From Candidatus Sigynarchaeum calidifontis (GTDB lineage Archaea; Asgardarchaeota; Lokiarchaeia; Sigyniarchaeales; Sigyniarchaeaceae): DNA of 39,851 nt. Below the pieces are notes generated by a model. That model made no database searches, had not been told where the DNA came from, and worked only from the letters and a program-made list of their open reading frames with translations. Both the position numbers and the translations under genes were made by a program. Where the stretch lies: assembly GCA_030587475.2 (NCBI GenBank), contig JAUQYZ020000243.1, positions 1-39,851 of the forward strand, in the 5' to 3' direction. Position 1 is the stretch's first letter. Each line of letters opens with the position of its first letter. Positions 25,880 through 37,107 of this stretch are shown one piece after another.

Positions 25880-26695
25880 ATGTTCATGGCAGACGAAAAC
25901 GCTATCTTTAAATTCTTCAAAGGCACGTTTTCGAGGAAAACGATGCTCACGCGTCTCGTTCCCTCCATTCTTGCAATTTTGCTCGTGACTTTGTTCATAG
26001 CAGGCTTGATGTTCCCAAAGGCGTATGATTGGCGTTATCTCGTGATCTCGGCGCTCTTGAGCACGCAGCACAATCCAATCTGGAACGCATTTCCAGCGAT
26101 AGGAATGACCGTGGGGGGAATCTTGATGATAGGAATGCTTGGCTATTACCAGAAGAGGCTGGGGAAGATCTGCCGCGGGACAACGGGCGTGGGAACCGCT
26201 TTCTTGCTCGTCGCCATCATCGGCCTCATCGGTGTCGGCACGATCGGGCAAGCGGGCGAGTTGATCCCCGAATTCCACGCCATCCTCGTCGATGCCGGGC
26301 TCGAGAAACTGCACGAATACCTGGCTGCGCTCGGTTTTCTTGGCGTGGTCTTCACGGCTATCTTCTACAGTTGTCCCATTTTAAAGGATCATTTCCGAGG
26401 CGCGAAACAATTCAACATGCGCATCTTCTTGGCCAGCCTCGTTCCGATCCTCGTCGGCGTCGTGGGGTTGGCCTTGAGTTCCTTGTATACCGCGCTTACA
26501 GAATGGGGGAGTCCTCTGGGGAATCCAGCAAATCCCCGTGTCGAGGATGCTGGTAAATATCCTGCATGGATCAGCTTTGCCTTTTGGGAATGGATACTTT
26601 TCATTGGCGTGGTTATTTACATCGTCATGCTCGCGGTCCTGGTTCCTGAAACCGTGATACCATTCGAAAAACGCAATAAAGAAATGAAAGGATGA
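25880..26695 (+). CDS. Polytopic membrane protein (DUF998-like)
   Basis: About 6 TM; YDWRYLVISAL, LHEYLA, FWEW. Start at 25880 or 25886. Confidence 0.6.
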   Translation: MFMADENAIFKFFKGTFSRKTMLTRLVPSILAILLVTLFIAGLMFPKAYDWRYLVISALLSTQHNPIWNAFPAIGMTVGGILMIGMLGYYQKRLGKICRGTTGVGTAFLLVAIIGLIGVGTIGQAGELIPEFHAILVDAGLEKLHEYLAALGFLGVVFTAIFYSCPILKDHFRGAKQFNMRIFLASLVPILVGVVGLALSSLYTALTEWGSPLGNPANPRVEDAGKYPAWISFAFWEWILFIGVVIYIVMLAVLVPETVIPFEKRNKEMKG

Positions 26696-26760: not shown

Positions 26761-27483
26761 TCATGGCGAGCCCGCCGGATGGCCCCCGGGGCGTGGATGG
26801 CTTGCCGCGTGGGCAAACGGTGTCTTGTCCTTGATCTCGACGGCCTTGCATAGATACCCGAATGGGTACTTGTCTTGATGGAGATGGAAAGCATCCATGG
26901 CGAATAATTCCCTTGCGGCGAGTAAAAACTGGTAATATGGATTTCCAGGGAAAACCTTGACGATCACTGCATTGAACTGGAAGCTGGGGTACTTGGGGGC
27001 CTCGCCTGTATAGAGTAACGATATCCGGGGATTTCGCTCCATGTTTTTTGCGGTCTGGCCCTCGAATATCTCGAGGCCGCCGAGCATGCACGTGTCGAAA
27101 TTGTCCACGTCGCTGTAAAAGGTCTCCATTGCCTTCAACCGTGCCGGCAAGGTTTCTTGAACCGGCTTTCCGGCACTCTCCAACCGTGCTTTATCGAGCA
27201 TGTCCGTGAAGAACGCGATCTTTTCTTGCTTGGGGACGACTCCCATGCCGCGTGTCGACAAGTTCACGGGGAAATCGTTTTCATTCCCTTCGGGATCCCA
27301 CGTCGCGAGCACCGGCAAGTGCGCTGGCTGGGCTCGCACCTGGCTCGCGCCACCCTGGGCCATGGCCTTGAACATGCGCACGCGCGCTTCGGATTGCCAC
27401 TCGAGGAATGACCGTGGAAGCGCCACGGTCGAAAACGTGCGCTTTTTTCCCCCAATCGTTATTTCGATGATGTTTTCTCCCAT
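26761..27483 (-). CDS. Pyridoxamine 5'-phosphate oxidase-like (FMN-binding split barrel) protein
   Basis: PVLAT, GQTAKNMERNPRISLLY, SFQFN. Confidence 0.65.
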   Translation of the reverse strand: MGENIIEITIGGKKRTFSTVALPRSFLEWQSEARVRMFKAMAQGGASQVRAQPAHLPVLATWDPEGNENDFPVNLSTRGMGVVPKQEKIAFFTDMLDKARLESAGKPVQETLPARLKAMETFYSDVDNFDTCMLGGLEIFEGQTAKNMERNPRISLLYTGEAPKYPSFQFNAVIVKVFPGNPYYQFLLAARELFAMDAFHLHQDKYPFGYLCKAVEIKDKTPFAHAASHPRPGGHPAGSP

Positions 27484-27512: not shown

Positions 27513-27535
27513 ACGACCGCATCGGTCGTTATAAA
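27513..27535. promoter_or_regulatory. Palindromic operator candidate abutting a TATA box
   Basis: ACGACCG-cat-CGGTCGT (27513-27529) running into TTATAAA (27529-27535), between divergent genes. Confidence 0.5.
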
Positions 27536-27598
27536 GGATACGATGATTAACCATGCCGGCGATCAGCTTGATGACGAACGCGAACGCGTGGTTTGGCA

Positions 27599-29068
27599 AT
27601 GAATCGATCCAAAGGCGTGATCGTGGCAGGTCTATTACTGCTCGCCATGGTTCCCGTGCTCATCACGATGCACGCGATGCTCGTGCAAGAAACGATCAAG
27701 ATCGTCGATCCGATGATCGGCGCCCCGCAGTTCAGCAAGCCTGGCGGATCGTTCATGGTCTTCGTCGAAAAAACGGGCTGGGTAGATCCTGGCTCGTGGA
27801 AGGCGCAGATGCAGTCAGTCGACTTCCCGTGGGCAGCCGCGATCCCCCTTCCCATCGAGGACTCGGGCATGTTTCGCGAAGGCCGACACGTGTTAACCGT
27901 TCGGGTGCCGTCCACGTCTTTACCCGGCTTGTACGACTTGAACGTGTCGTGCACGTCGCTGGGCACGCGCTACTCGGCCATCGAGCCCCACTCGGTCTGC
28001 ATCTATGCGAACGTGTCCACGCTGCGATTCGCGCACCTCACGGATCCGCACGTTACCATTCCGGACAAGACCGTGAACATGAACGTCGCCCCGCCGCACA
28101 CATCGGCCACGTGGATGGAGCGCTCGATCAACAACAATTTACGATGGTTACTCGAGAACGTTTCAGTTGCACGTCCGGAGTTTGTCCTGCTCACGGGCGA
28201 CATCGCCACTCGCGGGCTTGAGGATGAGTTCAAGACGGCCAGGGACATCATAATGGCCTCTAAAATTCCCGTTCTCTGCACGCTCGGCAATCATGACCAT
28301 CGAAGTCCCCCGAGCTTCGCGTATTACCTTGCTCCCCCGTATTTCTCGCGCGTGATAGACGCTTGGCGAATCATCTGCCTGGACACCGGCGCAACCGAGG
28401 GTAACGGCTTGTTCGGGGCTCAATTAAGGTGGTTTGGCGATGAGCTCGTGGCGGCAGCGGCGGCGGGGCAGCAAGTCTTCGTCGGCATGCACATCCCATC
28501 GACAACGGAGCCGATTAGCGGCTACACGATCGCGGGAAACGAGGAATTCCGGGCGCTGTGTAAGCAATATGGAGTCCGCGGGATTTTCACCGGCCACCAT
28601 CACTATTCCGATGCCGCGCATGATAACGGGTCGCAAGTCTTGATACCCGATCCCATGCCGCCGAGTGCAAAACCAATCTACGTGAAGACCGGGAGCACGA
28701 CGCTCGATTACGGCAACGGGGATCGCGGCATCGGCTGGCGATTCGTGTGTAGCTACAGGAATGGATCCTTGTCCATTGGCTATGACATAGCCGGGGCGGG
28801 CACGAGTGACCCGGTCGAAGACATCCCGCTGAATGGGTTATTTCGAGCGGATGGGGCCCTCTGGATAAACCTTACCAATTGTTATCGCATCACCTTCACG
28901 AACGTCACGATCCCCGTGCAATTCTCACTCTCGTCCATTAGCGACCAATTCATCCCCTCTGAAGGCACGATCATTGGCCAAGTCCGCACTGAAACCATGG
29001 CCGGCCTTTTACTACGTATTACATTGCCTGAAACTAGCAGCAAGCAAATCACGTTCACGAGGATGTGA
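27599..29068 (+). CDS. Exported/membrane-anchored metallophosphoesterase with beta-rich accessory domains
   Basis: N-terminal signal/TM. Motifs HLTDPH, TGDI, LGNHDH, GMHIP, TGHHH. Several N-x-S/T sequons. Confidence 0.85.
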   Translation: MNRSKGVIVAGLLLLAMVPVLITMHAMLVQETIKIVDPMIGAPQFSKPGGSFMVFVEKTGWVDPGSWKAQMQSVDFPWAAAIPLPIEDSGMFREGRHVLTVRVPSTSLPGLYDLNVSCTSLGTRYSAIEPHSVCIYANVSTLRFAHLTDPHVTIPDKTVNMNVAPPHTSATWMERSINNNLRWLLENVSVARPEFVLLTGDIATRGLEDEFKTARDIIMASKIPVLCTLGNHDHRSPPSFAYYLAPPYFSRVIDAWRIICLDTGATEGNGLFGAQLRWFGDELVAAAAAGQQVFVGMHIPSTTEPISGYTIAGNEEFRALCKQYGVRGIFTGHHHYSDAAHDNGSQVLIPDPMPPSAKPIYVKTGSTTLDYGNGDRGIGWRFVCSYRNGSLSIGYDIAGAGTSDPVEDIPLNGLFRADGALWINLTNCYRITFTNVTIPVQFSLSSISDQFIPSEGTIIGQVRTETMAGLLLRITLPETSSKQITFTRM

Positions 29069-30357
29069 TGGCCACGAGCGCAAGTATCCCATCTAACAAG
29101 ATCGATCTGTCGTGGCTGCAGCGCACGTTCGAGACCCATCTCCCCGTTATGGCCCTTTGTACCATCGTCATCCCCAGCATCGTGTTCGGGATGTTCACGA
29201 TGGGGCTCAACCCTGAAGATAGCGAGCTCCGCACGACATACTACATCGTGATCACGGCGGCGATGCCCGTATCGATGCTGGGCGGTTTCTTGCTCGCGAT
29301 GATGCCGGCTCGAAGGGTTCTCCTCATCGCTCTCGATGCGGCGACCGGGGTGGTGGCGTTCTTGTCGTACGCGTGGTTTCAGGCCAGGATATCGATCGTG
29401 CCGGCCGACCATGCATCGACCTTCCCGGGCTGGCAATGGCAGTCCCAATACCAGCAAGACGTGCTAACGGCGCTCGTCATCGTCATGTCGCTGCGCTGCG
29501 GCATGTCCTTCCCTCGCCGCGGAGCGATGCCATCCGCGGATGGAGACACGTCGGCCGCTTGGGCAACGGCGTGTTCCTTGATCGTGATTGCTTCCGTGTA
29601 TTTCGTCAGCTGGCTGTTCGGGACATGGTGGCTCCTCCACTTGCAAGTTGCGTGCATCGCGTTTGGGAGTTGCGGCGTGCAAGTGCTGCTCCCGCGTTAT
29701 CCAAGCTCGACCGACGAGCATCCGGCAGCGACCGGGATGCGGAATACAACATGGATGCCCATCCTCTTCGGTTTCGGCATCCCGCCCCTCATGCTTGCCC
29801 AGGGCTTCACTATAGGCGTAGCTTTCGTCGTGAATAGTTGGTCTGCTAGCTGGTGTGCCCACATTGGCATTATGATACTCACGGCGAGCCTTGTTTCGTG
29901 CGGGATCTTGTCAGCAGAGAAGCGGCTCGCGAAGGTAATGGATACCGCGTGGATACTCATCACAGCAGACGCGTTGCTGCTATTTCTTGTCATCTTGCTT
30001 CATTCCCGGGCCATTGTTCCCGTTGCGCCCAGCTGGAGCATGGCAAGCGGGGTTTCGGCTGGGCTGATTGCCACTGCCTTGGCCAAGCTCGCAACTAACC
30101 ATCGCCATCCCTTCCGTGCAACAGTGCACTTGATGCTGGCCTTGTTTTGCACTACCATCGGCATTGGCGGGGGTATCGCGTACTATCTCTATTCGGGCCA
30201 GTCGATTTCAATCTTGCCAGGTGGGGTTTCATCTGAATTACTGATTGCTTTCACCATTTCCGGTTCTGCGATTTTCGCTGCCATCATGATAATTTTGATT
30301 ATCGGCATGCGTGCCATCATCAAGGTGCGGCATCACGAGGTGAAAGCTTCGCATTGA
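29068..30357 (+). CDS. Polytopic membrane protein (about 12 TM) of unknown function
   Basis: Hydrophobic throughout; start overlaps the upstream stop (TGATG). Confidence 0.75.
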   Translation: MATSASIPSNKIDLSWLQRTFETHLPVMALCTIVIPSIVFGMFTMGLNPEDSELRTTYYIVITAAMPVSMLGGFLLAMMPARRVLLIALDAATGVVAFLSYAWFQARISIVPADHASTFPGWQWQSQYQQDVLTALVIVMSLRCGMSFPRRGAMPSADGDTSAAWATACSLIVIASVYFVSWLFGTWWLLHLQVACIAFGSCGVQVLLPRYPSSTDEHPAATGMRNTTWMPILFGFGIPPLMLAQGFTIGVAFVVNSWSASWCAHIGIMILTASLVSCGILSAEKRLAKVMDTAWILITADALLLFLVILLHSRAIVPVAPSWSMASGVSAGLIATALAKLATNHRHPFRATVHLMLALFCTTIGIGGGIAYYLYSGQSISILPGGVSSELLIAFTISGSAIFAAIMIILIIGMRAIIKVRHHEVKASH

Positions 30358-33245
30358 GCGGAATCTCGGAGCGAGTGACGGTTGCCGAGCGCTGTGGCCC
30401 GGTTGCCCGATGGGCTTTCACGCTCGTGTATCTGGGGCTCTCGCTCGCAGTTTTTTTCACATATCCCGTGATAGGGTACATCGCGGAGCACGGTTCATTC
30501 GATGTGGAAGCTTTCCTATCGGGTGACGTGTTCGGCAACTACCGCATCAGCCTGGTCGATGCGCTGCTCGATGCAGAGCATTTACTTGCGAACTTCATGA
30601 CCGTGATCCTTTTCTCGCTCGTGCTCTCCGCTTTCCTCGTCCATTACGGACCTTCCAAGGGTGAGGCAAGACCGGAGGAATTCTCGAAGCGATATTTTGG
30701 CCGGGCCAAGTGGCTCGGCTTCGCTGCTGCCACGATACTCGGCACGGCCATCGTGCTGACCGTCACCGGCATTGGATACACCCGGCCCGAGCTCGAGGGG
30801 CGTACCGCCTCGATAATGCTCGGGAACTTCCACCCGGAGAACTTCTCGGTGCACGTGTTCTACTATCTTTTCCTGTTCTCGGGACTGCCAGGCTTTTTTT
30901 ACATCATTGCTGCAGGGAAGGCAAACCCACGGCGGAGTACATGGCGCCCAGAACGTCCGCGGGTCGGCTTGTTTCTCCTGATCGTTTCCTTGCTAATCCT
31001 GGAGATCGTCGCCCTGTTCTCGCCTTTGGTGATGTGGGACGTGATCAATGCGCGCACCTCGATTCGCGAGATCTTGTACTCGATCATCGACAGCGCGTTC
31101 ATCACGGCCATCGTGCTCGTAATAGAGTGGCGCGACCGGGCTCGCTTGTCGCAGCCAGCCATCAAGGCAGACACGGACGCTGGCATGCCGAGGATCGTAA
31201 AGCACATGATCACGTGGAGCATCCCCATAATTGCATTCCTGGGTCTCGTGATTTTCATGTTTTCGGAAGGGTATCTCGAACTCTTCATCAGCGTTGCATA
31301 TTACTTGTCAAGAACATGGACATTTGCCTTTGCGGTCGTGTTCACCTTGTTCTTGTACCACGCCGGCACTCTCGTGAAGCTTGGCTACAAGCCCGCTAGA
31401 TGGAAGTTGCCCAATCTCTCCCGCGTCAAGCCACGCGTGCTAGCTGCCTTGTTGATCGCCAACTTTGCCATCGCGGGATCCTTGGTCGTGATAAAGGCCC
31501 ATGTAGAATCGCCGGTCCTAATAATGAACCAGGCAGGGTACCTTCCCGCGCAAGACAAGACGTTCCTCGTGAAGACGAGGTATTTGCACCAATCCGGGTG
31601 CTTCGACGTTCTCGAAGCATCGAGCGGGATACCTGTCCTCAGCGCGGCACCCCTCGAATACGTCGGCACGAGCTGGGGTGCGCATTATTACCGCGGAAAC
31701 GCGTCGGCCATCTCGACGAGCGGTTCCTACCGGATCGCCACGCGATTCGTCGATAATGGAATGGTCACCGCGGCCACGGCGCCGGAGCCGTTTAACGTCG
31801 GGACGGGCGTGTACGACCTCGCGGCGAGGCGCGGGTACGAGTTCTTTTACTACCAGCGGTGCGGCACGCGGGTGCACGAGATCGTGCCCGGTTACGTGGG
31901 CCACGAGCCGTGCCACTTGGATGATGGCATCATGTACAAGGGAGCCTGGTTGAATCTCACGGGAGCATGGCATTCTGCTGGCGATTATGCCAAGCATATA
32001 TATTGGGGCATGCATTGCGAGGCTGTCATCTACTCGTGCTTGTTCGCGTACGAATTGGCGCCAGATCTTTATGATGGCATCGATCTCGTTACCGTGAATG
32101 GGGCCCCGATGCCAAATGGCATCCCGGACATCCTTGACGAGGCCATGTTCGGCCTCGAATATTACGAACGCAGCTTCCTCGACAATGGTACACTGCTAGG
32201 GTCGATCGTGGGGGACCTGGTGTTTTGCCCGCCGGAGAAGGACACGGACAACATTCCTGGCACCGCGGACGACCGCCATCTCTTCTGGGAGGAAAACCAC
32301 GTGCTCGCCCGGCCCTACGAGGCCATGTACGTCGCCGCGAGCTTCGCCAAGATGGCATGCATCGCTCGCGACAAGTCGTATTTCAGCAGCCGCGAGGCGG
32401 AAATGGCGCGATTCGCCGCTAACATCTACGGGAACTTTAGCACCGCGATAAACGTCACTGCCCCGAACCACCCGGCCATCAACAGCGAAGCATCGTCGCT
32501 GCTTCTCGCCACGCTCGAGATGTACCGGTATTTCGGCACGCCATCGCTGTCGAGCAAGTTGGATGCGGTCGCGGCCTACATCCACGATCATTTCCCCGAT
32601 CCTGCAGTGCTGTGGGGTGACGAGCTAGGTGAATGGAACCGGGTGCCTGGTTATTTCTGTTACTGGGCGCTCGTGAACGGATCGGCGACGGCGAGGGCCA
32701 TGGCGGCTGACGTCGCCCTTGCAATGTTCAATGGGCGGTTCAAGCCGCTCGCATCGGAGCCAGGGAACTTGTTCGGCATGATGGAAGTCAAGCTCGATGA
32801 TGGCCGAACCGAGCCGTTCTGGTCGCGCATCGGCCTCAACTCGTATTACTTGACCGCGGCCTTTTCCGCGTTCATGGCATACAACATCACCGGCGGCACG
32901 CGCCTTGATATCCTGGATTTCGGCTTGAAGCAAATCGGTTTCGTGCTCGGGACGAACCCGTATGGAATATCAATGGTCGAGGGCGTCGGCACGAGGAACC
33001 CGCCGATCTACCACCACAGGTACGCGTACATCCCGGGGAACCCGCGCGGTGCCGTGCCCGGGGCCATCATCAACGGCATCATCGAGAAGGGCGGGTTGCC
33101 GTTCATGAACGTGAACTCGGCGGCTGGCTCCAGCATCCAAGACCACCTCGCGGATGCAATGTCGAACGAGCCATGGTTGCCGCACAACGTGCACTTCATG
33201 TATGTCATGGCGGCGTTACTCGGCTGCGTCCAAGGCATGCGATAG
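30354..33245 (+). CDS. GH9 glycoside hydrolase (CelD-type Ig + catalytic domain) fused to an N-terminal domain of about 9 TM helices
   Basis: Motifs MNQAGY, FFYYQRCG, GAWHSAGDY, GIPDILDEA, LGTNP, HHR, NEPW. TTG start overlaps the upstream stop, with a GAGGTGA RBS. Confidence 0.85.
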   Translation: MSGISERVTVAERCGPVARWAFTLVYLGLSLAVFFTYPVIGYIAEHGSFDVEAFLSGDVFGNYRISLVDALLDAEHLLANFMTVILFSLVLSAFLVHYGPSKGEARPEEFSKRYFGRAKWLGFAAATILGTAIVLTVTGIGYTRPELEGRTASIMLGNFHPENFSVHVFYYLFLFSGLPGFFYIIAAGKANPRRSTWRPERPRVGLFLLIVSLLILEIVALFSPLVMWDVINARTSIREILYSIIDSAFITAIVLVIEWRDRARLSQPAIKADTDAGMPRIVKHMITWSIPIIAFLGLVIFMFSEGYLELFISVAYYLSRTWTFAFAVVFTLFLYHAGTLVKLGYKPARWKLPNLSRVKPRVLAALLIANFAIAGSLVVIKAHVESPVLIMNQAGYLPAQDKTFLVKTRYLHQSGCFDVLEASSGIPVLSAAPLEYVGTSWGAHYYRGNASAISTSGSYRIATRFVDNGMVTAATAPEPFNVGTGVYDLAARRGYEFFYYQRCGTRVHEIVPGYVGHEPCHLDDGIMYKGAWLNLTGAWHSAGDYAKHIYWGMHCEAVIYSCLFAYELAPDLYDGIDLVTVNGAPMPNGIPDILDEAMFGLEYYERSFLDNGTLLGSIVGDLVFCPPEKDTDNIPGTADDRHLFWEENHVLARPYEAMYVAASFAKMACIARDKSYFSSREAEMARFAANIYGNFSTAINVTAPNHPAINSEASSLLLATLEMYRYFGTPSLSSKLDAVAAYIHDHFPDPAVLWGDELGEWNRVPGYFCYWALVNGSATARAMAADVALAMFNGRFKPLASEPGNLFGMMEVKLDDGRTEPFWSRIGLNSYYLTAAFSAFMAYNITGGTRLDILDFGLKQIGFVLGTNPYGISMVEGVGTRNPPIYHHRYAYIPGNPRGAVPGAIINGIIEKGGLPFMNVNSAAGSSIQDHLADAMSNEPWLPHNVHFMYVMAALLGCVQGMR

Positions 33246-33346
33246 CCAGACATGGTTTTCAGGTGTAATTCCACGCATCTTTCTGGATACCTATGCTTCT
33301 CACGCTCGCTGCGAACTTTCATTAAAGATCGAGCCTTGGATGTCAA

Positions 33347-33952
33347 GTGCCCGCCTTTTTCCACATCAGACCATCACATGCCAAGGTCGGTGCCATCACG
33401 ATTGCTGCTTCCGGTATTTTGCTGCTTTTCGGGCTTTGGATACAAGTTCTCGAGGTATCGGTCATCCCTTCTGGTTACAACGTGCTTCACGTGGAGTTTG
33501 CCTTCACGGCGGAGCAGATGGACAAGGTCCTCGAATCGTGGATCGCTTTGAACGTGCTGCACGTCGAGGTGTTTATTGACCAGCTCGACGTGCTGATGAT
33601 GCCAGGATGGAGCGTCATGTTCTTCGGCGTGCAAGTCCTCGGCTTGCGGGCACTCGACGCTCTCGGCGTGGGTGGACGTTTCCGAAGAGTATCGTGGAAA
33701 TTGGTATATTTTCCCCTGGTCGCCGGGGCTGCAGACACGGTCGAGAATGCCATCATCTTCCAGGTGCTGAGTAACCCGGCAACGTACAACCGGGTCCTTG
33801 TCCCTGTTCTGTTTACATTCGTCGTGACCAAGTGGGGGATGCTGTTCACGGGCATCGTGATCGGTGCCGTTGCAAACATCGGGGCGCTCGCGGTCGTGTT
33901 GATGCGTGCCAAGACCACGTCGCATCAGCGCGGGATCACGGGCATGGTTTAA
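33347..33952 (+). CDS. 4-TM membrane protein of unknown function
   Basis: Four hydrophobic segments with embedded acidic residues (IDQLD, AGAADTVEN). Start is uncertain. Confidence 0.7.
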   Translation: MPAFFHIRPSHAKVGAITIAASGILLLFGLWIQVLEVSVIPSGYNVLHVEFAFTAEQMDKVLESWIALNVLHVEVFIDQLDVLMMPGWSVMFFGVQVLGLRALDALGVGGRFRRVSWKLVYFPLVAGAADTVENAIIFQVLSNPATYNRVLVPVLFTFVVTKWGMLFTGIVIGAVANIGALAVVLMRAKTTSHQRGITGMV

Positions 33953-33971
33953 ACGCGTTCCATGCCGTGGA

Positions 33972-35255
33972 ATGACCATGGATCCTGGGAAAATCGAGGC
34001 GGTTCGCGCAGCCGAGGTCGCGGGCATTTGGTTTGCCCTTGCATCTGCCGCAGCATTTCTCCTCGACGAGTTGCTTTTCGGGGTCAAGTCGGCTTCCGAG
34101 CCAAGAATCGTCGAGGCCGCAGCGGGGATACTGCTCGGCCTCCTTTCTTGTCTCGTGATCTCGCATCTCGCCGCTAGGTTTCCCCGGCTCGCAGCAATCA
34201 TGAAAATCACCGCCGTTGCATTGCTCGCAAGTCTTGGCGTTATCAACAATCTCGTTCACCTACCTTTAAACTTCCTAGCTCGGTTCGCGGTCTTGATTAT
34301 CGCTACATTGCTCGCTTGGATCGAAACATCACGCGCGCGATCCTACAGCGATGATCTCGAACGTGGTAATGCAATCCAATTGCAGCGCATGAGCATCGCG
34401 ATCGTCGTAGCTTCGCTTCTCGCCGGCGGGAGCCTCTGGCAGCAGCGTGAGAATTTCTATGCATGGCCTTCCGACTTGGAAGTGCTCATGTACACGATCA
34501 CGGGCACGGTGGCTGTCTGTCTCGCGGTGCTGCTCTTGATGGTAGAGCGCGATGCGATAGCAAATGGCGACATGGCGATGGTTCCGCGAACCGAAACGGG
34601 TGCGGAACGGCCTCCCTGGACCACGGCACTCTTGGCGCTCTGCTCTGGCATGGCAGTGGGACTGTACATGTCCCTTTCGGCGCTCGTCGCCCAGAACACG
34701 GCGCTCGAATTCCCGAGCCGGGTCGTGTATGCAATCAACACGATGGTTCCAGTCGCTATGCTCGCGATCTGCATGGCTGGCACGAGGGCATCCAATATAC
34801 CGGGAACAGCACGAGTGCGGCGTTCCTTCATCAATGAGCCAGCTGGCTTGATTCTCCTCATGTTGACGATCGCGATTACCATCGGGGCCCCATGGATTCT
34901 TGGCACGGCGAGCATCGTCGACTCCACTGTCGCAGGAACGATGCACGTCGCCGGGCTGATCTCGCTGCCATTGCTAGTATATTACATGCTGTCGAAACTG
35001 GCCGTGATTCGCCAGACTGGTGGTTATCATGCCCTCGTCTCGTCGCTCGGCAGCGCGGGGCTCGTCATCGGCATCGCGGGGTACCTCGTCGGGGGAACCA
35101 CGTACAACATGGACTTCTACGTCGGCCTGGCCTTCACGGTGCTCATCGCCCATGGAGTGGTGGTGGCTTGGCTAATGGAGCGGTTCCCAAAAGAGCAGCC
35201 GCGGTGTGATGTCCAAGCAAGGCCATCGAGGGCAAAAATGGAGGTGGCGTCTTGA
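33972..35255 (+). CDS. Polytopic membrane protein (about 12 TM) of unknown function
   Basis: Hydrophobic throughout; its 3' end carries the RBS of the next gene. Confidence 0.72.
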   Translation: MTMDPGKIEAVRAAEVAGIWFALASAAAFLLDELLFGVKSASEPRIVEAAAGILLGLLSCLVISHLAARFPRLAAIMKITAVALLASLGVINNLVHLPLNFLARFAVLIIATLLAWIETSRARSYSDDLERGNAIQLQRMSIAIVVASLLAGGSLWQQRENFYAWPSDLEVLMYTITGTVAVCLAVLLLMVERDAIANGDMAMVPRTETGAERPPWTTALLALCSGMAVGLYMSLSALVAQNTALEFPSRVVYAINTMVPVAMLAICMAGTRASNIPGTARVRRSFINEPAGLILLMLTIAITIGAPWILGTASIVDSTVAGTMHVAGLISLPLLVYYMLSKLAVIRQTGGYHALVSSLGSAGLVIGIAGYLVGGTTYNMDFYVGLAFTVLIAHGVVVAWLMERFPKEQPRCDVQARPSRAKMEVAS

Positions 35256-35256
35256 G

Positions 35257-36633
35257 ATGCTGAAACCGGGGGCAAGGAGGCCTGTCTGGGCAGTGGCGCT
35301 GGTTGCGGTCGTGATCGTCTCATCGATCCCTTTCATGCTGGAGATCTACCAAGACGCCAGGCTCGTGCAAACCCATCCGCTAGCACGCGAGAAACACGTG
35401 CTCGCCTACTATTACCCGTGGTTTCACAACGGCACCAATTACACGGGCGCGCTCGGCGACGCCATCGTGGAAAAAGGCAACGCGACGGGTTGGGCGAGGT
35501 GGGGCTCGCCCGAGGATCCGTGCTATAACTACACCCTCGCGTCGTCTTTAACCCAGCAACAAGTCTACTACTGGCGAAACGGGCTGGAGCGGAACTACTC
35601 GTGGGCATCCATCGCCCATTGGCCGCTCGATGGCTTGTATGACGTCTCCGATCCCGACCAGATCAATCGCCATTTCGACCGCATGAACCGGGCCGGCATC
35701 GATGTCTTGATCGGCGACTTTTTCGGGGATTACGAGTTCCAGGACCCGACGATGGACGGCTATCTCGCCGTGGCTGCCAACCGCTCGGCCGAAGGGAAGC
35801 CGTCACCGAAGATCACGTTCATGCTCGGCGTCTCGTGGGGCCCCGAGCAAGAATGGTGGGGGCCGACGAGCCGCAATGGCAGCGGCTGGGGCATCATCAG
35901 CCACGCGGAGTACATCTACCACTACGTGAAATCGTATCTCGATGCCCACGGTAACGATGCCCACTTCTTCCGGGTCAACGGCAAGCCGGTTTTTTTCACG
36001 TGGGCGACATACGTGCCCGGTTACGACGTGTGGAAGGCCGCCATGGCGATGCTCCGCGAGGACTACGACTTCTACATCGTTGTCGACTGGGGATACCAGA
36101 AACCCGGCCCGCCGGGGCCGGAGTGGGTCGAGCTGTTCGATGGCTTCGTTTTCTATAACCCGGTCGGGTACTTGTTCAACGAGGGCCCCGTGCCGAACAC
36201 GCCCAACAAGTACGCGAACCTGTGGTGGCTCGACTGGGCCAACTCGAACGACGTGAACAAGGGCATCGCCCCCGAGATCACGCGCTACGGCGAGGTACAA
36301 AGCCCGACGATCCGCACGATGTTCCGGAACATGAAGCGATATTACACCGGGCTGGGCAAGTTCTGGGCACCGACGGTCATCCCTGGCTATGACGACCGGC
36401 AGATATACCCCCACGCGAACTCGTTCGTGGGTCGCGCGGGGACGACAAACTACGGGTCAAAGCTGACCTACGACGGCATGTGGGAGGACGCGCTCGCGTG
36501 CGAGCCAGCCTGGGTACTCATATGTAGCTGGAATGAAATACACGAAGGCACGGAGATCGATGCATCGGTGGAATATGGCGACTTGTTCATCAACCGGACA
36601 ATGCATTACACGAGCATGTTCCACGCGCAATGA
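35257..36633 (+). CDS. GH99-like (endo-alpha-mannosidase/GH71-99 clan) glycoside hydrolase with N-terminal membrane anchor
   Basis: Motifs VLAYYYPWF, GLYDVSDP, AGIDV, NGKPVFF, VIPGYDDR, SWNEIHEGTEI (ExxE). GGAGGTG RBS at 35240-35246. Confidence 0.85.
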   Translation: MLKPGARRPVWAVALVAVVIVSSIPFMLEIYQDARLVQTHPLAREKHVLAYYYPWFHNGTNYTGALGDAIVEKGNATGWARWGSPEDPCYNYTLASSLTQQQVYYWRNGLERNYSWASIAHWPLDGLYDVSDPDQINRHFDRMNRAGIDVLIGDFFGDYEFQDPTMDGYLAVAANRSAEGKPSPKITFMLGVSWGPEQEWWGPTSRNGSGWGIISHAEYIYHYVKSYLDAHGNDAHFFRVNGKPVFFTWATYVPGYDVWKAAMAMLREDYDFYIVVDWGYQKPGPPGPEWVELFDGFVFYNPVGYLFNEGPVPNTPNKYANLWWLDWANSNDVNKGIAPEITRYGEVQSPTIRTMFRNMKRYYTGLGKFWAPTVIPGYDDRQIYPHANSFVGRAGTTNYGSKLTYDGMWEDALACEPAWVLICSWNEIHEGTEIDASVEYGDLFINRTMHYTSMFHAQ

Positions 36634-36639
36634 ACGCGG

Positions 36640-36665
36640 AGCCGTTCGATCTCGGCTTTTTTTTT
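36640..36665 (+). terminator. Hairpin plus T9 terminator closing the glycan cluster
   Basis: AGCCG...CGGCT followed by a nine-T run just after the stop at 36633. Confidence 0.65.
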
Positions 36666-36747: not shown

Positions 36748-37107
36748 ATGGGCAAGAAACCAGAACGGTCGAGCGATTCCCAGGGCTCCCGGGTTCGCCA
36801 ATCAACCGGCGACATAGAAGTCCAACGAGCAAGAACCCCTGTCGCGGCTGATAACGAGGTGCTCGGCATCGTCGTGCAGATTCTCGGCGACGATAGGATG
36901 CGCGTGCGATGTGCGGATGGGGTGGAACGTCAAGGTAGGATCAGGGGCAAGATCAAGAAGCGAATGTGGACCCGTCTCGGCGACCTCGTCATCGTGTCGA
37001 AATGGGATTTCCAAGACTCCCATTGTGACATCGTCTATCGATACCGGGAGAACGAGCGCGCCTGGCTCGAGAGAAAAGGATACATTAACGAGTTTCTCCA
37101 ACCATGA
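36748..37107 (+). CDS. eif1a: Translation initiation factor aIF-1A
   Basis: EVLGIVVQILGDDRMRVRCADG..R.GRIRGKIKKRMW.RLGDLVIV..WDFQ...DIVYRY. Confidence 0.95.
   Translation: MGKKPERSSDSQGSRVRQSTGDIEVQRARTPVAADNEVLGIVVQILGDDRMRVRCADGVERQGRIRGKIKKRMWTRLGDLVIVSKWDFQDSHCDIVYRYRENERAWLERKGYINEFLQP

Follow-up and report, generated by a model that had tools for sequence, protein, structure and literature searches.

Pairs of membrane-anchored hydrolases and polytopic partner proteins in an Asgard archaeal gene cluster: a possible surface foraging island

Asgard archaea are the closest known relatives of eukaryotes and are mostly uncultured, and the ways in which they use or build glycans have mostly been inferred from counts of carbohydrate-active enzymes. 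The stretch of DNA analysed here (the window) comprises 39,851 nucleotides (nt) of Candidatus Sigynarchaeum calidifontis (assembly GCA_030587475.2, contig JAUQYZ020000243.1). Between positions 27599 and 36633 it contains six tightly packed open reading frames (ORFs), g1 to g6, all on the + strand and all encoding membrane proteins, among them a metallophosphoesterase and two enzymes of the glycoside hydrolase (GH) families GH9 and GH99-like. Below, the locus is described gene by gene and compared with its relatives, and is then weighed as a set of hydrolase-plus-partner pairs that may serve foraging at the cell surface. G-labels denote the compared genomes (G000 is the genome of the window), with C-numbers for their contigs, and L-labels denote loci or contigs of relatives (L020 is GCA_041305925.1).

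The first gene, g1 (27599-29068), encodes a predicted N-terminally anchored ecto-metallophosphoesterase of 489 amino acids (aa). Its stop codon overlaps the start of g2 (ATGTGATG at 29063-29070), which encodes an orphan protein of 429 or 430 aa with 11-12 transmembrane (TM) helices (29065/29068-30357), and the stop codon of g2 overlaps in turn the TTG start of g3 (TTGA at 30354-30357). The g3 product consists of an N-terminal 8-TM module (30354-31430; residues ~10-345, N-terminus predicted inside) and a C-terminal part (31437-33245) containing a type-II anchor helix, an Ig-like CelD_N domain and the GH9 catalytic domain. A spacer of 101 nt (33246-33346) leads to g4 (33347-33952), which begins with GTG and encodes a 4-TM protein of 201 aa. 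The last two genes are g5 (33972-35255; a 12-TM protein of 427 aa arranged as 6+6 helices) and g6 (35257-36633; a type-II-anchored, GH99-like (beta/alpha)8 enzyme of 458 aa), separated by a single nucleotide, a spacing that is identical in L022. The start of g5 is most likely at 33972, as it is backed by an orthologue of 428 aa; the ESM Atlas record starts two codons downstream. Orthologues with 42-86% identity keep the gene order on at least six independent contigs, showing that the six genes are real. The ORFs, their overlaps and the hydropathy profiles (a single N-terminal anchor in g1 and in g6, ~11-12 TM helices in g2, eight plus an anchor in g3, ~4 in g4 and 12 in g5) agree with the initial annotation, made from the sequence before any database search, which had described six co-oriented, membrane-tethered genes; its Metallophos, GH9 and GH99-like calls also hold, all three lying above the Pfam cut-offs. 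It was likewise right that glycosyltransferase, ABC ATPase and solute-binding protein families have no match among the six genes in Pfam and NCBIfam. In the same databases g2, g4 and g5 match no family, and BLASTP comparisons among g2, the TM domain of g3, g4 and g5 found no pairwise homology.

The GH9 domain of g3 matches Glyco_hydro_9 (PF00759) from position 1 to 443 of the 444 in the profile (104 bits, cut-off 27.7; E 1.5e-29), and solved GH9 structures, including 3x17 and 5u2o, align to it at E 1.5e-16. The Ig-like CelD_N domain in front of it scores 20.1 bits, under its cut-off of 24.6 (E 0.0011). In GH9 enzymes the two Asp residues of the catalytic base lie in a DAGD motif (PMC5651568). 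The corresponding stretch of g3 reads WHSAGDY, with SAGD instead of DAGD (residues 541-544, nt 31974-31985), so that the second Asp is kept and the first is replaced. The catalytic acid Glu close to the C-terminus is found in the motif SNEPWLPHN in all orthologues, aligned with TNEPAIDYN of 3x17. The first Asp of DAGD is reportedly required for full activity, as judged from mutants of T. fusca Cel9A. Sequences with the substitution form a clade with 100/100 tree support that takes in both fused and split orthologues and carries Ser in seven sequences and Ala in one (AAGD, G027:C82), while GH9 paralogues outside the clade keep DAGD, including G027:C20 and G000:C224, which also have an 8-TM partner. 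The initial annotation had overlooked both this substitution and the pairing of the GH9 enzyme with the 8-TM protein as a conserved, undescribed feature.

The 8-TM protein almost always has a GH9 partner, and the pairing takes two forms. In L025/L026, L027/L028, G019:C107, G027:C262, G027:C82, G027:C20 and G000:C224 a gene for the 8-TM protein abuts an Ig-GH9 gene; in the clade of the window and in G023:C95 the two are fused. As the fused forms are nested within the split forms (100/100 tree support), the 8-TM protein and the GH9 enzyme appear to act together. In the split-gene relatives the GH9 protein bears the anchor helix as its own signal-anchor. The description of g3 as a ~9-TM-GH9 protein was correct as to a membrane-fused GH9 enzyme but not as to the count, which is eight TM helices plus a separate type-II anchor (residues 362-385). 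A literature search found nothing relevant on TM-fused GH9 enzymes in Asgard archaea or Lokiarchaeota.

At least five membrane-bound GH9 paralogues are encoded in the genome of the window, and besides g3 three of them have polytopic parts. The four beyond g3 lie at C224:3735-6601, C95:11705-14053, C7:20112-21791 and C248:5185-7032. The C224 locus is a second split pair of 8-TM and GH9 genes, with DAGD, and those on C95 and C7 encode fusions of ~1060-1090 aa between 10-12-TM domains and GH9, the membrane parts of which give a marginal match to the 8-TM profile (~12 bits). ORFs of ~1000-1100 aa resembling these fusions are found in G001, G002, G015, G019, G023 and G027. Downstream of split 8-TM/GH9 pairs in other Asgard contigs there are genes for large secreted-type proteins, such as an 835-aa beta-helix/NosD/PKD protein (L027:11657-14164) and a 723-aa protein with no Pfam match (L025:10986-13157), which may be further extracellular glycan-binding components.

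The AlphaFold2 (AF2) model of g3 residues 1-400 (pLDDT, the predicted local distance difference test score, 78; pTM, the predicted template modelling score, 0.80) contains eight membrane helices, after which a long helix stands apart at residues 360-384. Lys and Arg are abundant in each of the four loops of the 8-TM domain that face inward, and its conserved polar residues (D73, N158 and the P224 region) lie in loops of the outer face. The family is small: among 1.84 billion proteins it has 18 cluster representatives. Apart from one, these are stand-alone proteins of 229-403 aa, plus one fragment of 73 aa, and fusion to GH9 is restricted among them to the window's own clade. A Pfam scan of every family member gave no recurring family. 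Fold searches were run with the model that includes the anchor helix. Foldseek against the PDB gave a best E of 0.04 at a TM-score of 0.16, with WzxE at rank 50 (E 0.67). The ESM Atlas shape search reached a TM-score of at most 0.27 overall, with one GT87/PMT_2 row at 0.24-0.29, and the VIA wide search returned no chain at Z>=5, its rows covering the anchor helix alone. GT-C glycosyltransferases, Wzx/MOP flippases and Wzy-type polymerases were not prominent in any of these searches. The 8-TM domain represents an undescribed family; because it was modelled together with the anchor helix, the statement that it has no known fold is provisional.

Several features indicate on which side of the membrane the hydrolases lie. 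Basic residues precede the anchor helix of each, and as g1 and g6 have a single N-terminal helix preceded by such residues, both are predicted to be type-II anchored. For g3, the signal-anchor of the split GH9 proteins and the Lys/Arg-rich inner loops of the 8-TM model place the GH9 domain outside. The three soluble domains contain 12-19 N-x-S/T sequons per 1000 residues, at the 91st-97th percentile of the long ORFs of the genome, and the membrane parts only 0-5, a distribution that agrees with surface exposure. From these sequence features the three hydrolase domains are predicted to face outward, where they would probably be N-glycosylated.

The g1 protein is a member of the Metallophos family (60 bits against a cut-off of 21.5; E 5.6e-16), with a TM helix at residues 6-24 and a sequon density at the 94th percentile. 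It possesses all five metal-binding motifs (D-x-H, GD, GNH(D/E), H and GH-x-H), which read LTDPH, TGDIA, GNHDH, GMHIP and GHHHY. Among NCBIfam and PDB entries it comes nearest to cyclic-nucleotide and glycerophospho-diesterases, and the closest alignments among solved structures, to Rv0805/Icc and GpdQ, mark it as of the phosphodiesterase type. The initial annotation had drawn a parallel with MPPE1/PGAP5, which trims glycosylphosphatidylinositol glycans. This parallel finds no specific support, the nearest proteins being the class-III phosphodiesterases Rv0805 and GpdQ; no MPPE1/PGAP5-type entry is found among the NCBIfam and PDB matches listed for g1, with which PGAP5 was not directly compared. 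The adjacent g2 has only eight relatives among 5.8 billion proteins, and one of these, 26% identical, follows a g1-like C-terminus in L021. In the ESM Atlas's own model of g2, which is of low confidence (pLDDT 0.56), clusters of the major facilitator superfamily (MFS) occupy 10 of the 10 structural rows with TM-scores of 0.62-0.70. The model makes an MFS fold likely, and g2 is probably a divergent MFS-fold permease and the partner of g1.

A similar picture is obtained for g5 and g6. The AF2 model of g5, again of low confidence (pLDDT 51.5, pTM 0.51), consists of 6+6 helices with a central loop; its best 50 Foldseek rows against the PDB and its best 50 VIA rows are all MFS transporters (lowest E 4e-4; highest Z 11.6, across ~300 residues). 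MFS_1 accounts for 19 of the 30 nearest clusters by language-model features, and the g5 homologue of G027 has a sub-threshold MFS_1 match (E 0.0023, 17 bits against a cut-off of 33). An MFS fold is accordingly quite probable for g5 as judged from the model, and the protein is probably a divergent MFS-fold permease acting as partner of g6. The latter belongs to Glyco_hydro_99 (PF16317; 57.5 bits in two stretches, cut-off 33), matches the Bacteroides BtGH99 and BxGH99 structures at 2e-10 over three segments of the barrel, and has a sequon density at the 97th percentile. Both catalytic Glu residues (E-x-x-E) are kept in the motif NEIHEG (nt 36535-36546), in which Ile replaces the Trp of EW[H/G]E. 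GH99 has a broad distribution in archaea and bacteria, and EW[H/G]E is described as a conserved motif of the family (PMC11025385); the parallel with the eukaryotic secretory pathway that the initial annotation had suggested therefore has no specific support.

Two variants of the g5-g6 arrangement were also seen. In P0011, a 99%-identical, 5'-partial database variant with a length of 479 aa, residues ~295-338 of g5 continue in frame into residue ~40 of g6 and beyond. This implies a deletion of ~340 nt (window ~34986-35323) that connects a g5 helix to the GH99 domain; either strain variation or an error of assembly could account for it. On G002:C472 (L030:6-2383) no GH99 gene follows the gene of the g5 family; an overlapping ORF of 405 aa without Pfam or PDB match lies upstream and is possibly a different hydrolase partner.

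The g4 protein is strongly conserved, and its alignment shows numerous invariant acidic residues and a VLHVE motif that recurs. A Pfam scan of its family members revealed no recurring family, and by sequence g4 qualifies as an undescribed 4-TM family. Its gene comes after g3 in the window, in G001, in L017 and in L018/L022, but not in L020, where a TumE/MJ0235-type toxin-antitoxin pair on the opposite strand occupies its expected place (L020:4719-5423). A homologue in G003 (44-48% identical) is found in an unrelated context. Prediction of a complex between the TM domain of g3 and g4 gave a score of 0.00, which is no verdict, neither for nor against binding.

The block as a whole occupies one genomic slot, between a divergent gene for a 240-aa protein and the eIF-1A gene, and its composition varies among relatives. 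The order g1-g6 is found in the window, GCA_012798355.1 and Logan DRR4385xx contigs, with identities of 51% for g2 and 42% for g5. G001, of the same genus as the window, has g5-g6-g1-g2-g3-g4; in GCA_040960625.1, g1-g4 are followed directly by eIF-1A, without g5-g6; and GCA_041305925.1 (L020) has g1-g2-g3 and then the toxin-antitoxin pair. Further away, in G027, G003, G002 and L033, the modules are unlinked: of the other genera of the same order, G027 carries g5-g6 and three 8-TM/GH9 pairs on separate contigs, and in G003 both the 8-TM protein and g4 lie in unrelated contexts. G027:C25 and L033 both retain the g5-g6 pair, and in L033 the two genes overlap by 4 nt. The partner families are rare, being found in 6 (8-TM), 4 (g5) and 2 (g2) of 400 genomes of the phylum, many of them incomplete, and all carriers fall within two families of one order. 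Since each pair is conserved beyond the clade and the six-gene set is not, we hold with considerable confidence that the locus functions as pairs of a hydrolase and its partner, and not as a machine of six genes. The synteny comparison across Asgard genomes that had been proposed as a check upheld the three pairs, and the six-gene linkage within one genus-level clade only.

The regions between and around the genes suggest how the block may be transcribed. In the promoter region upstream of g1 (27513-27555, + strand, read from the sequence), a perfect 7-bp inverted repeat (27513-27529) abuts the TATA box TTATAAAG (27529-27536), which is followed by a 19-nt downstream element, GATACGATGATTAACCATG (27537-27555), conserved before g1. 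The initial annotation had pointed to a palindrome and a TATA box in front of the cluster, and both are present, but in L019, L022 and L017 conservation extends only to the TATA box and the element after it. The arms of the repeat differ in these relatives, and the palindrome was rejected as a conserved operator. In G001 the shared TATA box precedes g5 and the downstream element precedes g1, the rearrangement junction lying between the TATA box and the conserved element ACGATGATTAACC; g5-g6 are there placed between the TATA box and the g1 leader element, and both arrangements therefore hold the genes in one co-oriented block. Within the spacer between g3 and g4 there is a TATA-like box, TTTCATTAAAG, at 33317-33327, ~25 nt before the GTG of g4. 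L022, L017 and G001 conserve both this box and the start context (A/C)AGTGC, and T-runs follow g3 in them as well. These features fit two transcription units, which the initial annotation had already considered, and make probable a second promoter before g4 with a leaderless g4 transcript. Behind g6, a 5-bp hairpin (AGCCG...CGGCT) and a run of nine T (36640-36665, + strand, also read from the sequence) form a probable terminator, and the eIF-1A gene downstream of it has a TATA box of its own.

We give about an even chance to the reading that the locus is an island for foraging on surface glycans and phosphodiesters, made up of three hydrolase-plus-importer pairs. In each pair, an anchored, outward-facing hydrolase would release products that its own polytopic partner imports. 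Module 1 would combine g1, as a class-III-type ecto-phosphodiesterase, with g2, as a divergent MFS-fold permease, in a layout similar to that of glpQ-glpT. In module 2 the 8-TM protein of no matched fold would work with a type-II-anchored Ig-GH9 beta-glycanase, here within one chain (g3), and g4 would be a clade-specific accessory. Module 3 would comprise a second divergent MFS-fold permease, g5, and g6 as an enzyme of the GH99-like endo-alpha-mannanase type. In the genus of the window the modules would have been gathered between the divergent gene and eIF-1A, and they would be expressed, perhaps under common regulation, from a TATA promoter upstream of g1 and, probably, another upstream of g4. 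Uptake is plausible because g2 and g5 resemble MFS proteins, the sets are accessory and rich in paralogues, a sugar symporter lies nearby, and the genome of the window encodes, elsewhere, GH3 (five copies) and GH130 enzymes for downstream breakdown. The many GH9 paralogues, and the presence, absence or transposition of g5-g6 in close relatives, reflect an accessory, expandable behaviour that is typical of nutrient acquisition. The intact catalytic motifs of g1 and g6 and the outward orientation predicted for the hydrolase domains also speak for this reading. Cleavage outside the cell followed by import through carriers was one of two options in the initial annotation and fits the MFS-like folds of g2 and g5. 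Two of its 'novel carriers', g2 and g5, are by fold probably divergent MFS proteins.

A number of observations weigh against foraging by such pairs. The MFS assignment of g2 and g5 comes from low-confidence models (pLDDT 0.51-0.56), neither protein matches the Pfam MFS clan, and hhalign comparisons of their alignments with a five-member MFS alignment and with each other gave probabilities of at most 2%, although these alignments are too shallow for the test to decide. In fold searches the 8-TM domain resembles no transporter. The loss of the first DAGD Asp in the 8-TM-partnered GH9 clade means that plain depolymerisation may not be the job of these enzymes. The cluster contains no cytoplasmic catabolic enzymes or regulators, GH1 and GH94 were not found in the window genome (89% complete), and all six genes are linked in one genus-level clade only. 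The altered base pair, the conserved residues on the outer face of the 8-TM domain and a cluster devoid of catabolic genes also lend weight to a different role, in which surface glycans of the cell itself, lipid-linked or polymeric, would be exported, flipped or held by the partners while the anchored hydrolases trim them and so shape the envelope or extracellular matrix. Such editing has parallels in KORRIGAN and BcsZ in cellulose synthesis and in the endo-mannosidase of N-glycan trimming. The GH9 enzyme is membrane-anchored like plant KORRIGAN; Ser or Ala for Asp is fixed across the SAGD/AAGD clade, suggesting hydrolysis that is tuned and not maximal; the conserved polar residues of the 8-TM domain point toward the GH9 domain; and exporters exist among MFS-fold proteins. 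Since no glycosyltransferase, flippase (MOP/Wzx) or polymerase was seen in any related locus, a biosynthetic role is nevertheless disfavoured, and dolichol-related genes are equally absent from this locus and the related loci examined. The rarity and patchiness of the families and the several paralogous TM-GH9 sets per genome also speak against editing, and the dispensability of g5-g6 in a close relative is unlike core envelope machinery; we regard editing of the cell's own glycans, the main alternative, as rather improbable.

The same variation among relatives bears on whether the six proteins form one integrated surface complex that dephosphorylates and cleaves a single substrate, for instance a phosphomannan-glucan, and imports the pieces. 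At least four assemblies keep the six genes as a group, even where identity has fallen to 42-51% for g5 and g2, their start and stop codons overlap, and in G001 g5-g6 were re-placed inside the same block. Yet GCA_040960625.1 has g1-g4 at the same site without g5-g6, L020 lacks g4 after g3, the modules come apart in the four more distant genomes and loci named above, and the stretch between g3 and g4 probably holds an internal terminator and a promoter, making a single complex unlikely. The initial annotation's notion of one six-gene system is upheld only in part, as the six genes are linked solely within the genus-level clade, where g5-g6 may follow g4, precede g1 or be missing. Very improbable, in our estimate, is a sensory role in which the polytopic partners would be transceptor-like receptors that sense the products of the hydrolases and do not carry them. 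The lack of a transporter-like fold match for the 8-TM domain and the response-regulator genes that flank the g5-g6 pair in L033/L034 would suit such a role, but g2, the N-terminal domain of g3, g4 and g5 bear no cytoplasmic signalling domain and there is no kinase or regulator in the window cluster. A more far-reaching and quite tentative idea is that the 8-TM family and the S/A-AGD GH9 enzymes constitute a new membrane-integrated glycan machine, either a translocon threading a beta-glycan chain or its products straight from the GH9 active site through the membrane or a device for surface-glycan editing without glycosyltransferases, with the hydrolases of these Asgard archaea working in obligate private-partner pairs. 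Surface foraging by separate pairs is the reading retained here.

The neighbours of the cluster in the window are AOR, a GPH-type MFS_2 symporter, eIF-1A and an M23 peptidase, none of them tied to glycan synthesis; the GPH-type sugar symporter lies 1.9 kb upstream of the locus, where relatives have more MFS genes. The upstream flank of the slot always consists of two conserved genes of unknown family. One (25880-26695) encodes a ~6-TM protein and is duplicated in L019, and the other (26761-27483, - strand) encodes the soluble 240-aa protein, is divergent from the g1 promoter and has a weak, sub-threshold PNPOx_N match; either could be functionally part of the locus. The downstream eIF-1A gene (36748-37107) is single in the window and L022 and tandemly duplicated in G001 and GCA_040960625.1 (L011:9295-10109; L017:15082-15936). 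Arf-like GTPase genes on related contigs are consistent with an Asgard origin.

The locus defines three kinds of membrane-protein family outside Pfam, namely the 8-TM partner of GH9, the MFS-like orphans g2 and g5, and the 4-TM g4, together with a GH9 clade with a changed catalytic base pair. It also suggests an organising rule for a single-membrane cell, in which an outward hydrolase is tied by operon or fusion to its own partner, an arrangement that would limit the loss of products by diffusion. The finding alone does not inform the origin of the eukaryotic secretory pathway.

Each module has counterparts among known systems, and each departs from them. The g1-g2 pair recalls glpT-glpQ of E. 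coli, which encode an MFS glycerol-3-phosphate transporter and an extracytoplasmic glycerophosphodiesterase, in that a phosphodiesterase gene is coupled to a 12-TM MFS-type gene. However, g1 and GlpQ are members of different enzyme families, and g1 is tethered to the membrane and carries additional domains at both termini; its catalytic domain aligns best with the class-III metallophosphodiesterases GpdQ and Rv0805, and all metal-binding motifs are present. Unlike GlpT, g2 has no sequence-level MFS signature and only its eight relatives. The GH9 part of g3 shares the CelD_N-like Ig domain, the (alpha/alpha)6 GH9 domain and the WH-AGDY and NEP motifs with solved Ig-domain GH9 structures (the metagenomic endoglucanase 3x17, J30 CCH 5u2o, A. 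acidocaldarius Cel9A 3ez8, BoGH9A 6dht and the multi-modular GH9 entry 6fhj), from which its clade differs by the replaced first Asp of DAGD, the type-II anchor and the fused or adjacent 8-TM protein. KORRIGAN, a type-II membrane GH9 enzyme of the plant cellulose synthase complex, likewise stands beside polytopic proteins, the homology with g3 being compared at the level of the GH9 family only; but no cellulose synthase or other glycosyltransferase is near g3, and its partner is an 8-TM protein without fold match. Like polysaccharide utilisation loci (PULs), both those of Gram-positive bacteria and the mannan PULs of Bacteroides with their GH99 endo-alpha-mannanase, the locus places surface-tethered hydrolases in co-orientation with putative uptake proteins. 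In contrast to PULs, there is no SusC/SusD, TonB-dependent receptor, ABC system or regulator among the six genes or the neighbours scanned; each hydrolase has a private partner, the modules are separable and the organism is single-membraned. A GH99-type enzyme with its ExxE catalytic pair is common to the locus and the mannan PULs, but g6 reads EIHE and not the EW[H/G]E described as conserved in GH99 (PMC11025385). The locus is thus a real, conserved and lineage-restricted variant of the theme of a surface hydrolase plus a transporter, and its undescribed part is the pair formed by the 8-TM protein and the GH9 enzyme with SAGD.

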